Source of the DNA: Raillietiella orientalis
Taxonomy: Eukaryota
Length of the DNA: 64,000 nt
Direction: 5' to 3'
NCBI GenBank assembly: GCA_036172245.1
Contig: JAYWIR010000025.1
Coordinates: forward strand, 1,302,001 to 1,366,000
Shown piece by piece: positions 14,681 to 24,700 of this stretch. A program made the position numbers and the translations under genes. The notes beneath the pieces are model-generated. The model made no database searches. It saw only the letters and a program-made list of their open reading frames with translations, and was not told where the DNA came from. How positions within the stretch are numbered: position 1 is the first letter of the stretch; every line of letters begins with the position of its first letter.

Positions 14681-15732
14681 TCAAACCAGAAATCCTTCTG
14701 ATATCTGAGCCCTCATAGTCTGTACACTGTTCATCACTTTCTTCTGGTGACCCACGAGGGTGATCCCAATACCTTGCAGATCTTGCACACTCAGTCGGGA
14801 TACGGCTTCCAGGGAAGCGATCCCCGCACGCTCGAAATTTTTTAAATATCGCGTCATGTTGATGGACGCGAGCCATTCCTCCACGGAGGACAGCTGAGTC
14901 ATATTGGGGGAGTCCGAGGAGAGGGGATTATGGCTCCTGCTTTGTGTTACTTTGCGGAGAGTTTCATTGCACTGCAGCAATCTGTCAAGGGTTTTAACGA
15001 TGCTGGCGAACGTTGGCCTGTGCGTTCGCTCTTTCTGCCAGCAGTCCAGCATGAGCTGGTGGATGGCTTCGGGACAGTCCATAGGAGGGGGGAGACGGTA
15101 ACCTTTCTCGATGCTTTTGATCACATCCTGGTTGGACCAGTTCCAATATGGCCGCTCGCCGTAGGAGATCACCTCCCAAGACACGATGCCGAAGCTCCAC
15201 ACATCACTGGCTGAGGTGAATTTGCGGAAGGCGATCGCTTCGGGAGCGGTCCATCGAACGGGAATCTTTCCTCCCCGGGTGGTATATGCCCCTTCCGTCG
15301 TGCTTTCGACCTCTCGGCTCAGGCCGAAGTCGGCGATCTTGCAAGTCAGCTGAGCGTTTACGAGAACGTTCCGAGCGGCCAGATCACGGTGCACGTAGCT
15401 CATCTCGGAGAGATACTGCATGCCCGAGGCGATGCCGCGCATCATGCCGACGAGCTGGACAATCTGGAACTTTCCGTCGTTAGCTCGAAGAAAGGTATCC
15501 AGGGATCCGTTCTCCATGAACTCCGTTATGATCATGGAAGGGCTGGACTTGGTGACCACTCCCTCGAGGAAAATCACGTTGGGATGCGTGAACTGACCCA
15601 TAATTGAGGCCTCTGTGAGAAAATCAATTTTCGCCTTTTCCACCGCTCCCGGCTTCAACGTCTTGATGGCGACGGTGATTTCCGATTTTCCGGTGTACTG
15701 CAGCTTCCCACGGCAGACGTCTCCGAATTCGC
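14681..15732 (-). CDS. Eph: Eph last coding exon: tyrosine kinase, SAM and PDZ-binding tail
   Basis: Acceptor cccatag|GC, then 1052 nt open to TGA. Contains [21 protein letters not shown] and the SAM domain. Confidence 0.98.
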
Positions 15733-18700
15733 CTATGGGCACAAAAAACAAAAAAGGTGCGGTAAACACGTCTCGGCGACGGACGAAAACAAACCTCCTC
15801 CTATTATGGCTTCGATGGTGATAAACGAAGCGTCGATTTCCCTGGCGAACTCACGCACAGCTTGGTTGGGGTCCTCGTAGGTGTGAGGGTCTATGTACGA
15901 CCTCCGTAGTCCGATAGTCGGAAAGCTGGGGGATACTGGAAGCCGACAACGAATTAGCGTTCCTCCCTGTTGGGATTCGCGGCGGGACCTACTCGTTGTC
16001 TGCAGGCGCGCTGGGACCACGTTCGCCGGCTCTACGCTGCACGGCACTGGAATAACAAGAGAGCACCCAGTTACGAACACAGGCAAAAAACAGCGAGGAG
16101 GCAGAGGCGATCGTCAGCCTGCGCCCAGCCAGTGGTCAGCCGACCACACCGCATGGCTGCGGACGGCACGAGTCGCTTCATCTCTCTCTTCCTCACACTT
16201 ACACAAACACATACACACACACACGCGCTCCTCCCTTCCCAGCTCGGAGCGGAAAACAAACACTTCGCCTTGCACGGATTCCAGCTCGAACAAACTGAAG
16301 GCGCGCGCGCGCACGCCTCCATTCCGTGTTCGTGCACATGGATCGTTTATCCAGTCTAGGCATGCCGCGTGCAAAAAGTCCCCCTCCCCCCAAAAGATCA
16401 AAGAAGAAGTGGGAAAAGAGAAGACTTGCCGTGCGCACCAAAGCTTTTTTCCGCGAAACCGGAAAGCCCGCACGCAGTCCGCGGAATCAATTTCGACTAC
16501 ATCGGCGCCGCCGCGTACCCGAACGGAACACACACACACATACGCACACAAAAGAAGCAATCTCGAGGAAAGACGGGAAGCTCGGGTACGCAGAGCGTAC
16601 GACCGGATGGCACGGACGCGTCGTTTCCAGCCGCCGAGACGACCGGCCCGCTCTCAAGAACGTCCGGCGCTGTGGGCACGGCTGCAGCAGCAGCTGCCTG
16701 CGGGCCGACCGCGGAAAAGCGAATCTCCCCCCCCCCCCCCGACCTTTCTCCTATTCCCTGTCTTCTGAGCGAGCAGCCAGCCCCGGTCAGGATGGGTCAA
16801 AAAAAAGAAAACCTTAGCACGGCAGGACGCGCGCACAAAAGGACCGTTCACTCTTCCCGCCGAGAGAAAAGTGTGTGTTCTCCGTGCAAGCGCGTCCTCC
16901 CTTCCTTCGGTAAAGGGAACGGGGAGGAAGGAACCGCAATGAATCAACCAGCATTTAGCGAAACAGGGACACATTTGTTATACGCCTGCAACTTACTGTA
17001 CGTAAGTATGAGTCCTGTGAAGCATCCGAGTGGAGAGGATGAAGCAGAGTTAGTTAAACTGTATAATCCCGTTGAGGATTTCAACATACCTTCTGCATTT
17101 CGGTACTCCAGCGTGTCGCAATCGCTTGGTTGCTTCTTGTTGCACTCATCGCTGCCCCTGCAATATAAATGGTGCTGGGTAAGCACAGAAGAAAGAAGGC
17201 CGTCTCCAGCAGACCGTCTTAGAAAGAGGAAGATCATGACCAAAATAACTGATAGCAGCACGATGGCCGCAACCGTGGCTCCAGCTATGATGCGGACTTG
17301 GACGCTTTCGTCGTCACCTACAAAAGCTGCATTGTACTTTCGCTATGGGTTCTTCGATAACTCATGGTTACTTAAGAGCTGGCCGGTGGTCCGGTAAACC
17401 GGCGTGCTGTACTCGCCCCAGCCGTTGGTCGTCTTCGCCCGGACTTGGAACCCGTACTCTGTCTGCTGCTGCAGAGACACTACTTCGAGCTCCTCCCGCC
17501 TCGTGGAGATGGTGCTGGCGTTCTCCTCGACCCCGCGGATGAAGTAGCGGACTTCGTAGGCTTCGACGTCGTAGAAGGAATCCAGGGGCGCTGACCAAGC
17601 CAGAGTGATCTCGGACGCCTTGACGTCGAAGACCCGAACGTTGGACACGACCGACGACACTGAGCTGGGCTGTGAAAGGGCTGCCTCGCGGAGTGCGAGC
17701 TCGCCTACCTGCCGCTTCCGTGGTTGCCGTGATCTCGGAGTAGGGCCGCTCTCCCGACTGCTCCGACACGCCGTTCTCCGCGAAGACTTGAAAGCGGTAG
17801 GTGGTGACCGGGCTCAGATTGCTAATCGTGATCCTGGTGTCGGTGATCCGCTCCTTAGGAGAGAAGAGGAGAGGGCAAGCGATTCTCCGAGAGAAAACCT
17901 CCCCACGACCTTACATAGATTTCTTGGGCTCCCGAGAAACCGCCGGCAGCGGCGCACGCCTCGCACCGGACGCGATAAGAGATGTCGGTCCTTCCTCCGA
18001 GATAGGCAGGGGGGCTCCACGTCAGAACGACGTTCGACTGGTCGACGAAGTTCACCGTGAGATTCAAGGGAATGGTCGGCGGCTCTGCGAGAAAGTCACG
18101 GCATCGACGGTGAGCCGCGAGGAGGCGAGGAGGGCTTACGGGTGCACTCCGCGATCTTGAGGTCCGTGCTGGCTCTGTACCACCCGACGTCGCAGCGGCA
18201 CACGGAGAGTCCCGGATGCGGAGCGGTGCTGTGCTTGGGGCAGGATTCGCACAGGATGTTGCTGTCTTCCGGCTTGTACTTGCCAGGAGGGCAGACTGGG
18301 GGCAGAAAAAAGAAGAGGCTGCTGAGCCGGAAGCAGAGGAAGCGTTCCGTGGCGAGCGAGGCGCTTCCGCAGGTCGGCGGCGCATCCTCAAGAATTCGCG
18401 GCGGAATTCTTTCGCGCGATGGTCTGCTTTTTGTCTTTTTCTTTTCGACCCCTGCTTTGGGCAGAGAGCACGCAATCTCTCCCCCTCACCCTCTCTTCGG
18501 GAAGAGGCGAACATACTGTAAAATCTTCCATCTCGGAACCTCTTCCGGTCGGGTTACAGGAAATTGGGCGCACCGCAGAGTGCCCTCCAGAACACAATTG
18601 GTTCGTGAAGCGTTTTTTTGTTCTTTTTTTTCTTGTTGTTGCCGCTGTCGTTTTCTTCATTGAGGTATTGACGTTTTTCAAAAAGAAGGAGACAACGGGT

Positions 18701-21700
18701 TGCGGGAGAAAAGAAGGGGTGTTCCCGGAGGGCAGATCTCGATGCCTGGGCATCGGAAGGAGCAACTGCGAACCCAAGAGGACAAAGAGTCCGCGCGCGC
18801 GCGTGTCCATCGCGGGGCGGGAGCGGACTTCACCTTCCAGTTCCGCCGAGGAGGAGGAGGAGGAGGGAAAGGTAAAAGTTGCGCCGGAGTTGCTCCGGGC
18901 GACGGGGAGTACGAAATCCGGCAGCGGTCGCGGCAGCAGCCGAGCGCGTACACCTGCGCCGGTCCACTCGGATGCAACGCGGGCGTGCGTACGCTCCCCG
19001 TCAGGTCGCGCGCACCTGCACCACCTGGGTGGGTGTGGAACGGCGCGCTGCAGAGAGCCAGCCGTGTTCGCTGCTCCTCCGGGAGGGGGAAGAGGAGCGA
19101 GGGGGGGGAGAAAAGGGCGTCACCGGCGTTCGGCGACGGCTGACACGAGAGAGGCGGCGCGCTGGCTTTCCTGGAGGGTCAGAATGCCCGCCCTCCTCTC
19201 TGGATCGAGCAAGGCAGGATCGCGGGAAGCGATTTCCGGGATCACCCAAAGTGCGCAGGGAGCGATGCGTCTCCTCCTCCTCTTCCTTCTTTCGAGCTAC
19301 CGAAATAGCAAACAAGAAGAGGAGAGATGCGTCCGCAGTAATCTCCCGGGGGAAGTTCGGGCGCAGGTTCCCGGCTCCTTTGTGAAGATTCTTTGCCCAC
19401 GACTCCTCAAAAGAGCGGGGCGCGTCGTCGGGCGAAGGGGGAGGACTCCCTCCCGAAAAGGTCGAAGAGCCAAACAACGACACACACACAAAAAAAAAAG
19501 GAGGGGGGAGGAAGAGAGACGCCGTTCCGTGAAGAGCTGCTAATAAGGAGGGCGGGTTGGTTGGGGAAGAGGGGAGGGGGCGAAGGATTACCCGCGCCTG
19601 CATGCTGCTGCTGCGCATGCGCTCGAGCAGTCGAGCAGTGCGGCGTAACAAACGGGGAGCGCAGGGGCGACGACGACGGTAGCCATCCGACGAGGAAAAC
19701 CTCCGAGGAGTGCTTTGTGTTACTTTGCGAAGAGTTTCATTGCACTGCAGCAATCTGTCAAGGGTTTTCGCCACGCGGGCAGAGGGGAGGAAAGGAGAAC
19801 GAGTGGGCGAAGCCACTGCTTGAGCCGCCGCAGGTTCCAGCGCGGCGAGAACTTTCGCGGCGGGGTGAGAAGACGCGCGCGCGCAAGACGCACGCACCGG
19901 AGCAGACCTCGGAACCACCGGGCGCAACAACGATGCATCTCCCCTCCTCCTTCCACACTTTTTCGGTTTCGAAGGGGAACGCAAGGGGGAAGGTCGCTTT
20001 GTGCCTCGCCGCGTCGCTGCCGGAAAGACCCGGGGGTGGTTGCGAGCGCGATAGCGGCTCCCGCCGCGCGTTCTCACTTTCCCTCGGGCCGGCCAGCTGG
20101 TCCCTTGGGTCGAGGAAGCGGGCGGGTCGGCGCGCGATGACCACCCGACCCGGGGCGAGGTCGCCACTCCCTCCGTCTCGAAACACTCACTCCAATGAGC
20201 GCGATCCGACTCGGAGTTTTTTTTTTTTTTTTTAAAAAAAAAAAAGGGACACAGCTCCGTGCGTCCGCCCCGCCGGGCCCGCCCGCCGCCGCCGCCGAAG
20301 AGCTCGGACGGGATGGCCAACAAAGAAGAATCGCCGCGTCCCTGACCGGTCTCCCCCCTCGCGCTCCAAATCCACACCGGCGCCGTTAACTTTCCTTTTA
20401 ACGGTCCATTTTCTGATTGGCGAGAGAAAAGCGGGGCGACTCGAGCGACCCGGCTCGCGGCCCGCTCCGTCCTTCTATCCGTCCGAACCCTTCCTTCTAT
20501 TTTCGCCGCTTGGAGACCTCCCGTTTGTCCGGTGCGCTTGCGCGGGTGCGCTTTTTCTTCCTTCCTCTCCTCCGACTCCTCCCTTCTGCTTATCGCATGG
20601 ATGCGTGCGGGTGTCCAGCCAGCCCCCCGGGGGTTCGATGCACTTTCTCCCGCGTCGGAGGCTTTGTGATTAAGGCTTCCGCGCGTGGCACCATGCGTCG
20701 CGGGTTCGAATACTCCGGAAGAAACTGAGCCACTGCGTCGTTGGGTTCCGAGTTTCTCCTGCAAGATGGCGCTGGTGGGCCGAAACATTCGGGCGTGGCA
20801 CCGGTGGTCGTTTAAGCCGGGAGGCCCATGATGAAGGCCGGAACAATGGGAGTCGACTTCGGGTCCTTCCACGAATAAAGGAGTGGGGAGTTCGCCCTCC
20901 TGTCGTACAACAGACCCCTCACACCGGGGGGGCCCTCTGGTTTCAAGATGGAGCAGGAGCCCTCACGGGCACCTCTCCAGCTGTTTGAAGGAGAGGAACC
21001 CCTGTTGCAGGGGGGGGACCCTCCTAGTCGTCGCCTCTTCACCGAGTGCAAGGAAGCAAGCGAGAGCGATTCCCTGAGGGAAGCTGCAGCGCCCCTCCTG
21101 AATTTTGGAAGCGTCCCTCCGGAGAAGAAATCCTAATAGCAGATCCTTTCCGAGAGAAGTTGAAATGGAGAGGACCCCTCCTTTCCAGGGAGTCCTCCGG
21201 AGAGAATGAGGAAGGAGGTCCTTCGGGGTTCCCTTTCAGAGACAACCAGGGAAGGAGGTGCGATTCCCCTCGGATGGAGGGGAATCCTTCCCGAAGCGTG
21301 AGAGGAACGGACTCTGAGCCCTTCCTGGATTCATAGGGCGGACCCCTCCAACCCGCGGTGCCCCCTATCCTGAAGAATTTACACGCCCCCCCCTTGCGGG
21401 CTGCCGCAGGTGGGGTGGCGTGTAGACAAAACAGTGTGTTTAAAAGGGCCACATTCGCCACGAGGCACGCGACCAGCTCTTGAGGCGCACTTAGCGAACC
21501 AAAAAAAAAAGAAAACTGCGAAGACAGAAGAAAAAGAACCCAAGGATTTTCCATCATTTTCCATCACCGGGAACGAAAACGAAAAGAGACGGCCTCGCCC
21601 TTCCCGCTTCCGCCCTGCGGCCCTTCGCGGGTCGCGCGCGCGCGTGCTGGCCGCCGTCTCGCAGCCTCTCTGCCACTCACCCTTCGACCTCCCGTGGGCG

Positions 21701-24700
21701 CAGTGGCAGCGAAGAGGCGAATCCGAAGGCGTTAGCGGGGCGCCGCCGTTTTCTGCTGAGCGGAGATCGCACGCTGGAGGCGCCACGACGACGACGCCCG
21801 AATGGGGTGAGGGGTGGGGGCAACGCCCCCTCCCTTCCAGAACGGCGGCATCGAGAGCACCGCGCGCGCTTCACCTTTCCCTTCTCCCGGGAGGAAGGTC
21901 GAACGAGAACAGGAAAAGCGAAGGTGCGAATGGGGGTAGAGAGGGCGTGTGGGCGATTACCCCACCGCAGGTCCCCCACCGCCGGAGGCTCGCGCGCGCT
22001 CTTCTGCCGGCTGACTGTGGCATCCGCGACGGAGAGGGAAGCTTAGAGAAGCCTCAAGAAGGGGACTGCGAGGGGCAGGAATTTCTGTCGCTGAGGCGGG
22101 GGCGTACCCGGAGGGACAGGGTCGAGCGTCGCCGCCGCCGCCCCACCCACAGGGGACAAGACGTTCGTCGCTGCCCATCCCGACCTCGGACGCCGCGCGC
22201 GTCCGGGACCTCGGGGAGGTCACCATCCCGGAAAGGGAAGGCATCTGCCCGTTCTCCCGCGCGCCTTCTGAAGGGACCACGCGCTGAAGCGCGCCCTTGT
22301 GCTCTTGGCAAAGAGCTGCTTTCCTCCGCAATTTCTCTGGACGGGGGGAAGATATGTAGCGGTCATCCTTCCCTCGAGGCATGCAACGGAAACAAGGCAA
22401 GTAAAGGGGGGAGGGGAGGAGGATGTGATCGTCTCATGAGCGAGCATGAGTGTGGTGCGCTGCCCCCCCCCCGCCGCAAGACTCCTAATATTGTATGGCG
22501 GGGCCATTTTTGTAGCCTCGCGTGCTAAAAATAAAAGCCGTGAGCCTCCGCCGAAGTTCGGCCACGCGACGCGTGGGGTTCCCACTGGTGCGGAGCAGAC
22601 CAACGCGGAGGGGGCGGGGAGAGCCTGCTTACCTGTGCATGTCTGGTTCAGCAGGTTGGACTCGTATCCCTTGCGGCAGTGGCAGCCTCCACTCAGCAGG
22701 TACCATCGACCGTCTCCCTTGCAGAGGTACTTGGGGGTGTCGTAGGGCACGGCGTTGGGGACGCACTGCCCCAGGGTCTGCTCGATGGAGGTCACCTCGC
22801 TCCCCGTGGGGACTGCGCGGAACACGGCAAAGTTCTCGGTGATCTCCGGGCACGTGAGGAAGTACACCCGAATGGCGAGCAGGGAGAGGCAGGCGCCCTG
22901 GTCCCGGAAAGCGAAGTACACCCCTTTCTTGGTAACCGGGATGCTGCGTGTCTCCTTGTTGATGATGACCTCCTCCGTGGACGTGAAGCGACCCTCATCG
23001 GCCGCGATGCGGTCGATGAGCTTGTAGCTGTCTGGTTCCCAGGGAGGTGGCTCGCGTGTGGCAACGTCGAACTCGTAGTAGAGGAGGCTGAAGGTCTCCT
23101 TGCAGGACAGCGCCGTCCCGGGAAACAGATTGCAGTCCCGCATGGAGAACTTGACCTCGATGTAGATCCGGTTCGCATGACCCCTCTCGATGAACGGGGT
23201 CCACAGCCAGTTGTTGACGTTCGGGTACGACACGTCGCACACCACGTACGACCTCCAGTTGATGCCCTTGTCGAAGACGGTGAAGCTCTCCTCTACCCAC
23301 TGGAATGGACGAGATGGTGAGGGGCTGCAGGCGAATCCGTTCGGCTCGACTGAGGGGCGGCGCCGACCTCGCGCCTGCGCGCGCGCGCGAGCGCCACGGT
23401 GATCCGACCGGCAGGCAGGTGTTCCTTTTTCAGCGCACCCGGTGGTTCCGGGCGGCCATGGGCGCGCGCGCGCACCGGGTTCGCCTCCCCTCCGTGACAC
23501 GGCGGAGGGGCATGAGCGCGTGAGGGGAGGACGAATGCGAAGGGCAGGTGCAAGCGCGCGTCTGGAGCCGGGAAGGAAGGAAGCCCGCGGCAAGCTGGAA
23601 AAATTCGTCCCGGGGCAAATGCTGAGACACAAGGAGAACGGAAGCCGCCGTGGCCGCTGCTGCTGATGATGATGCCCCGCTGCCCTGGTTCGTCGCTCCG
23701 GCTTTGTGGCGGCCGCGGCCTTCAGGAGCTCCGTTTCGTTTCGGGTTTCAAGGGCGACGTCCTGAAGCGGACGGGAGGCCACGAGGAACTCGTCGCGGCG
23801 CGAGCGGTGCCGCAGGGACCCCTCCCGGCGGAGACGACGACCGATAACTCCATTCCGTCGCCCCCTTTGCCTGTGGGTGCATCCACGGCGTAAGGGAGGA
23901 AGACCGGCGCCAGGCAGCCCCTGCTCGTTTCCGAGCCCGCGGGCGTCCTCTTGCGGCGCGGCTTTCTCCTTTCTTTTCGGCCCCTAAGGGTTGTGCCTTT
24001 CCTTAAACGGGCACCACGCGATGCTGATGCTGCTCTGAGTTTCCAGAGGCGAGCGATCGCCTGGGGGCAAACGTTTTTCCCTCAATGAGAGAGTAGCCGG
24101 TCCGTGAGCGCCGTCAACCACCATCGCGAAGCGAATGCCCGACTTTTCGGAAGGCAAGGCGACCCGAGCGGACGTGGGCCGCGCAGCAGCCACATCCAGG
24201 CTCCCCCGCCCCCTCCCTTCCCCAATTTTTTCCCCGAATTTCACCGTCTGCGCGCCAAACCGTAAATCACGGGGACGCGGCACCTCCCGTTGGCTGCGAC
24301 TTCCCTCGGCGCGAATCCGGCGGGGAGGACGGGAACAAATCGCGCCGCTGAAACCACGGCTGGTAATGAACGCTGCGCGGTGGCGAGGCGGGAGCGCCCT
24401 TGCGGGTCCCAGAGGCCGACCGCTGCCGGCCTGAAGAGGACTGGAAGCCTCCCTCCCCCCCCTCGCTCGCTCGCGCGAAGGCAGAGCTCCCGTTTCGCGC
24501 ATAGCAGATTCCCTGTGGTTGTAAATCTTCCGCTGCTGATGCCTCTTTCCGTTCTCGCGATGGGCAAAAATAAGGCGCCCTGACGTCCAGTTGGAATTTT
24601 CCAGGGGAGGGAAAAAAAAAACAGAGGAGCAGGGGGAGGGAAGAACACCCGGTGAAACTTCTCAGCGCAAACGATTGCTATGACACCTGCCCACAACGCG

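Follow-up and report, generated by a model that had tools for sequence, protein, structure and literature searches.

The 18-nt juxtamembrane exon of the Eph receptor tyrosine kinase gene in Raillietiella orientalis (17014-16997 on the minus strand of the window, the whole 64,000-nt stretch of DNA analysed here) is real: RNA of a related population joins it to 17090 on one side and to 16046 on the other. The explanation that fits best, and that is considered rather probable, is that this exon is the orthologue of an old cassette microexon in the Eph juxtamembrane linker, common across Pancrustacea and regulated by eMIC.

Judged by the domains it encodes, the gene is an Eph receptor tyrosine kinase. 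Ligand-binding, cysteine-rich, kinase and SAM domains were found with Pfam, the FN3 and transmembrane exons were covered by tblastn with full arthropod Ephs, and the juxtamembrane tyrosine pair Y-x-D-P-x-x-Y-E-D-P is present (Table 1). In a kinase-SAM tree of 30 sequences, which represents one gene, was rooted at the midpoint only and omits Notodromas, whose model is without the kinase start, the window sequence pairs with the ostracod Cyprideis with support of 96/89, which makes an affinity to ostracod-like crustaceans likely. No Rfam match was found over positions 10000-40000 of the window. Copied or repeated sequence also occurs within the Eph gene. Inside its 4.3-kb intron, upstream of the kinase exon, 19711-19768 on the minus strand carries 58 nt that duplicate kinase C-terminal coding sequence from about 14938-14995, with 57 of 58 positions identical. 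At 20780-21400, in the Eph intron, lies a dispersed repeat of about 620 nt with at least 47 matches (40 of 1912 genome candidates scored); its copies are mostly 73-88% identical and its depth in RNA contigs is very high.

Table 1. Exons and introns of the Eph gene discussed in the text, in window positions
Feature	Position	Strand	Evidence
Ephrin ligand-binding and cysteine-rich domain exon	22632..23299	-	PF01404 E 1e-50, PF25599
Transmembrane exon	17215..17326	-	Acceptor: RNA joint 17326-17372; donor: inferred from homology and frame
First juxtamembrane exon, ends in conserved anchor, phase 1, donor GTATGT	17090..17157	-	Donor used in RNA joint
75-nt intron before microexon	17015..17089	-	Spliced out in RNA contig
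18-nt microexon (probable cassette exon), G-L-I-L-T-Y, donor GTAAGT	16997..17014	-	RNA contig and orthologues
950-nt intron after microexon	16047..16996	-	Sequence analysis
Second juxtamembrane exon, 54 nt (18 codons)	15993..16046	-	RNA joints at both ends
57-nt intron, GTAGGT..CAG, CTAAT at -22, in frame, no stop	15936..15992	-	RNA joint 15935-15993
Exon with juxtamembrane tyrosine pair YIDP..YEDP and kinase start	15795..15935	-	RNA and homology
Last coding exon (single): tyrosine kinase and SAM	14681..15732	-	PF07714 E 4e-94, PF07647 E 1e-18

RNA evidence comes from assembled contigs of a single whole-community metatranscriptome run with a word share of 0.07. The longer contigs over the Eph exons diverge from the window by about 2 to 7 letters per 100 and therefore belong to a related population or species. 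In one contig (n=1, depth 3.68), plus-strand position 16046 is joined to 17089. Seventeen letters inside this joint equal plus-strand 16997-17013 and the eighteenth letter is common with 17089, indicating exact inclusion of the 18-nt exon. Both junctions named in an earlier note on this DNA, 17090>17014 and 16997>16046, are thus present in one RNA contig. Another joint, 15935-15993 (depth also 3.68), removes 57 nt with GT..AG ends, so that 16046-15993 is a 54-nt exon of its own and the exon after it begins at acceptor 15935. A reading of 16046 and 15935, both named earlier as possible partners of 16997, as alternative acceptors of a single exon is ruled out by this joint. As a gain for annotation, the exon structure is now fixed as 17090 / 17014-16997 / 16046-15993 / 15935.

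The microexon is in phase 1 at both ends, with its acceptor CAG at 17017-17015 and its donor at 16996-16991. The upstream intron carries CTAAC at -39 and TGC at -32 and -10, and its last 42 nt are free of AG. A frame-preserving exon with GTAAGT, CTAAC, two TGC motifs and a pyrimidine tract had been described at this place, and each of these elements was recovered, the tract being moderate (11 of 17 positions at -20..-4). When the microexon joins 16046, translation confirms the anticipated change of the next residue from V to M; a direct join to 15935 would give I instead. Whether the 18-nt and 54-nt exons are used together, singly or not at all, the frame stays open to the natural stop, and the four forms place the end of the transmembrane helix 39, 45, 57 or 63 residues from the YIDP tyrosine. 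The exon with the anchor has a single copy in the 210-Mb genome, and the 54-nt exon sits where other arthropod Ephs have an optional segment of 16-18 amino acids. A search of the 950-nt intron for other exons of 3-60 nt, bounded by YAG and GTRAG, found none. Elsewhere in the region, the 57-nt intron after the transmembrane exon (17158-17214, minus strand) has a weak donor, GTCTGC, is in frame and contains no stop, and a spliced RNA contig (17182-17326) extends 33 nt into it; some transcripts may therefore keep this intron. Two juxtamembrane introns, the one of 75 nt and the second one of 57 nt, are likewise in frame and stop-free.

It was considered whether the exon might merely resemble one by chance, or be the end of an intron left unspliced, as an in-frame, stop-free intron of 75 nt would allow. 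A pattern that asks for an acceptor with CTAAY, TGC and an AG-free zone, followed by a 3n exon and GTRAG, has its sole match here when both strands of the window are searched, and 3 of 50 Markov shuffles also gave a match, a weak control given that the pattern was modelled on the exon itself. The RNA contig removes exactly the 75-nt intron and uses the GTAAGT donor, and sequence, length and phase are conserved in eight other distinct genomic loci. These come from metagenome DNA, where 9 of 32 loci have an 18-nt exon of its own, flanked by AG and GTAAG, 73-539 nt past the anchor (75 nt in the window); two of them (L014 and L016) have the same exon and acceptor and were counted once, leaving eight. 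The occurrence of a separate exon in these loci removes both the chance and the retention readings, which are now held to be extremely improbable. The donor is GTAAGT in eight of the nine distinct exon copies. Among spliced metagenome contigs, three include the exon (L010, L011 and L018), while L012, whose anchor is the same, skips it. The YxDP exon is reached without the 18-nt exon in L035, L036 and L038, and the other metagenome loci are spliced mite-like contigs without the exon or end before the YxDP exon.

Equivalent 6-aa inserts are present in orthologous proteins. Among 372 fetched proteins, 92 (from insects, a barnacle and malacostracans) have an insert directly after the anchor, a count that does not equal an inclusion rate, since the queries favoured the insert. 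These comprise 81 GLVVTY, 5 GLIVTF, 4 GQVVTY, 1 GLILTY and 1 GLIVTY. In the remainder of the set, 4 have the insert after an extra segment, 200 have V without an insert, 19 have G-K/N-K, 13 have other sequence and 44 have no anchor by the pattern used. Carriers include, among the insects, Hymenoptera, Hemiptera, beetles, a cricket, a damselfly, mosquitoes, hoverflies, Hermetia and Stomoxys, and, among the crustaceans, the barnacle Pollicipes, decapods and Hyalella. The alignment of arthropod isoforms after EYRNxE (DYASNE in flies), which had been suggested as a check, places the window's insert at the same site, with the same length and the same V to M change, as in RefSeq isoforms such as Acyrthosiphon XP_008184482.1, Tribolium madens XP_044261180.1, Pollicipes XP_037075029.1 and Drosophila virilis XP_032290150.1. 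The residues G-L-I-L-T-Y of the window recur identically, among the fetched proteins, only in a scale insect (P0114).

The GLVVTY insert that had been suggested for insect Eph isoforms exists and is alternative there. Nothing else distinguishes the two members in 10 of 10 isoform pairs from one insect species each. Isoform pairs are identical after removal of the insert in 13 of 15 cases, namely these ten and 3 of 3 tick pairs with a 3-aa insert; the two failing pairs are a cross-species wasp pair and a Homarus pair of very different lengths. RefSeq isoforms thus exist with and without the insert, whereas only inclusion was seen for the window. The exon could accordingly be constitutive in the R. 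orientalis lineage, merely a small exon of the main isoform: the sole RNA joint includes it, its donor and branch point are consensus, and its upstream intron is just 75 nt long. No skipping joint was found among the RNA contigs over the locus, although a single contig is no proof that the exon is never skipped. Annotations throughout the insects give alternative forms, and the ostracod models Cyprideis P0133 and Notodromas P0229, both gene predictions, have no insert. Constitutive use is therefore regarded as improbable, and a cassette exon is the preferred reading. It had also been stated that gene finders often miss exons this small; RefSeq models of many insects carry this one, so that it is not generally missed.

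Drosophilids have the insert in 2 of 43 proteins among the matches listed, those of D. virilis and D. novamexicana, both in the virilis group, and 2 of the 43 are without the region; loss of the exon in the D. melanogaster lineage is plausible from these proteins. Tick and horseshoe-crab isoforms carry a G-K/N-K insert, which was considered as the same exon and rejected: three loci with a related juxtamembrane region (L037, L038 and L039) show a second donor, GTAAGT, 9 nt after the first donor (GT or GC). A tandem donor, not a microexon, would give the G-K-K option of these isoforms. In malacostracan isoforms (P0016, P0017, P0029, P0036 and P0266) the insert is extended by S-K, probably where the GTAAGT donor is read through to a second donor 6 nt on, and Penaeus chinensis P0203 has the plain 6-aa form. 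At another site, the kinase activation loop, lineage-specific inserts of 2-7 aa occur in 30 of 327 proteins with the motif (P0035, P0021, P0046, P0057, P0079 and others); these are probably additional splice variants, and the kinase exon of the window has no intron at that site.

The microexon shares several features with the eMIC exons of Drosophila (in the available part of PMC8797185) and with vertebrate SRRM3/4 microexons: it is short and frame-preserving, has a long AG-free zone, and is preceded by CUAAY; UGC lies upstream too, as it does in most introns of this gene. According to the same part of that source, fly eMIC exons tend to have long AG exclusion zones and UCUC-rich tracts before them, with UGC close to the acceptor and CUAAY branch points, and also weak donors and short introns, weak donors not being a feature of mammalian microexons. 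The AG-free zone before the microexon is the third longest among the 10 introns of the gene. Where a distinct locus offers both the exon and a downstream control acceptor, the zone before the exon is the longer one in 7 of 7 cases (sign test p 0.016, the loci not being independent). The TGC motifs had been put forward as the mark of eMIC regulation. They are present at -10 and -32; however, TGC occurs at -45..-6 in 7 of this gene's 10 introns, and at -20..-6 it is found in 4 of 9 exon copies and lacking in 5, against 0 of 8 controls (Fisher p 0.08). CTAAY occurs in two of the 10 Eph introns, the one directly before the microexon and the second intron downstream of it, and a comparison between loci shows no enrichment (4 of 9 copies against 2 of 8 controls, p 0.62). 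Weak donors and short introns, a fly tendency and not a strict rule, are not found here, where the donor is GTAAGT, the downstream intron is 950 nt long and only the upstream intron is short; the strong donor and long downstream intron set the exon apart from the fly eMIC set.

The regulator appears to be encoded in the genome, as in the Drosophila and vertebrate eMIC systems. In fly, eMIC is an alternative last exon of Srrm234 (PMC8797185, available part). A cwf21 exon was found on the minus strand of genome contig C3 at 1001060-1001134, and the Srrm234 3' end (locus L007 5200-6470, same contig and strand) shows an RS-rich exon separated by about 560 nt of intron from an eMIC-like last exon, which agrees with the eMIC-domain Srrm234 named earlier. 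The last exon (L007, from 5356 downward) was located by walking downstream from cwf21 and matches SRRM_C positions 55-67 with E 1.9e-4, a match of 22.4 bits that is below the Pfam cut-off of 27 and covers 13 of 67 positions. We infer that the cwf21, RS-rich and last exons join as one Srrm234 gene. A profile search of the genome with PF15230 gave no match among 12 candidates, and its control was likewise without a match. A second cwf21 match (L002) was rejected as Srrm234, as it looks like a different RS-tailed protein.

The Drosophila eMIC tables of PMC8797185, as far as available, do not contain the exon, and D. melanogaster may lack it. For fly Eph, Table S2 of that paper gives only exons of 48 and 191 nt. 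The 48-nt exon (DmeEX0004299), matched by length and position, is at the site of the 54-nt exon 16046-15993; it is classed ASE, not eMIC, and is a neighbour of the 18-nt exon and not its counterpart. The same conserved cassette exon might be independent of eMIC or not neural; stage, muscle, ELAV or something else would then govern its inclusion, or it would be partially included everywhere. Such regulation would agree with the strong donor, the long downstream intron and the fact that just 4 of 9 copies have UGC close to the acceptor; it would agree also with the reports, in the available part of PMC8797185, that about one third of fly neural-enriched exons are eMIC-dependent and that fly eMIC exons are poorly conserved beyond Drosophila, whereas the exon described here is conserved far beyond one genus. 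Against it stand the long AG-free zones in 7 of 7 pairs, the 18-nt length, the presence of the regulator exon, and the finding that small exons dominate deeply conserved neural splicing (2026 preprint 10.64898/2026.09.05.749416, available part). Control by factors other than eMIC is on balance judged somewhat unlikely, and dependence on eMIC is the preferred reading.

Under eMIC regulation, the exon would probably be skipped by default and included where Srrm234 is present in its eMIC form, which means chiefly neurons. Together with the 54-nt exon it would set the length of the linker from membrane to YIDP at one of the four values given above. The insert itself would add a short hydrophobic element, G-L-x-x-T-(Y/F). 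An aphid orthologue aligns to solved EphA3 juxtamembrane-kinase structures only from the YIDP motif on, and the insert, lying upstream of the aligned stretch, probably does not belong to the autoinhibitory clamp. The Tyr that the insert had been said to add to the regulatory juxtamembrane segment is present, 13 or 31 residues before the YIDP tyrosine; in 5 of 96 inserts, all decapod, it is Phe, indicating that its phosphorylation is not universally required. A Y-x-x-hydrophobic sorting motif was rejected, as the third residue after Tyr is mostly P, K, T or C. As a best guess with about even chances, the insert would serve as a spacer or docking element, tuning kinase-membrane spacing, partner binding or trafficking and not the core autoinhibition switch. 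In vertebrate Eph insert variants splicing lengthens the juxtamembrane linker, and these variants and the present exon are probably independent. The plus-insert form of chicken Cek5/EphB2 is a neural juxtamembrane splice variant. Truncation of the EphA3 juxtamembrane region has been reported to alter kinase-membrane distance and ADAM10 shedding of ephrin (PMC2753297, available part).

The exon is already included in RefSeq isoforms of many insects and crustaceans. In the mainly open-access literature searched, with some supplements unseen, no paper describing it was found, nor any joining Eph with a microexon or with a neural-specific juxtamembrane splice variant. Eph is not named in the main text of PMC8797185, in that of preprint 10.64898/2026.09.05.749416, whose supplements may list the exon, or in eight supplements of PMC8042270; the supplements of PMC8055025 have one Eph row, for an 80-nt exon elsewhere. 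The available parts of PMC2121056, PMC6040699, PMC3353934 and PMC1968848 add nothing further on the exon.

The finding introduces no new mechanism, and the exon itself is in public protein models. What the locus adds is a copy with RNA support in a lineage that groups with an ostracod, and this suggests that the exon arose in the pancrustacean ancestor. This ancestor lived roughly 500 million years ago. Deeply conserved microexons are uncommon in arthropods, and this 18-nt exon has been kept from an ostracod-like lineage to mosquitoes. More tentatively, and with somewhat less than even confidence, it may be a neuron-specific, eMIC-dependent microexon from that ancestor and one switch of a combinatorial code of juxtamembrane length, which would have been missed because the D. 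melanogaster lineage lost the exon, with the 3-aa option of chelicerates arising independently through a tandem donor. Lying in an axon-guidance receptor, the exon offers a ready test case for the tuning of Eph signalling by splicing.
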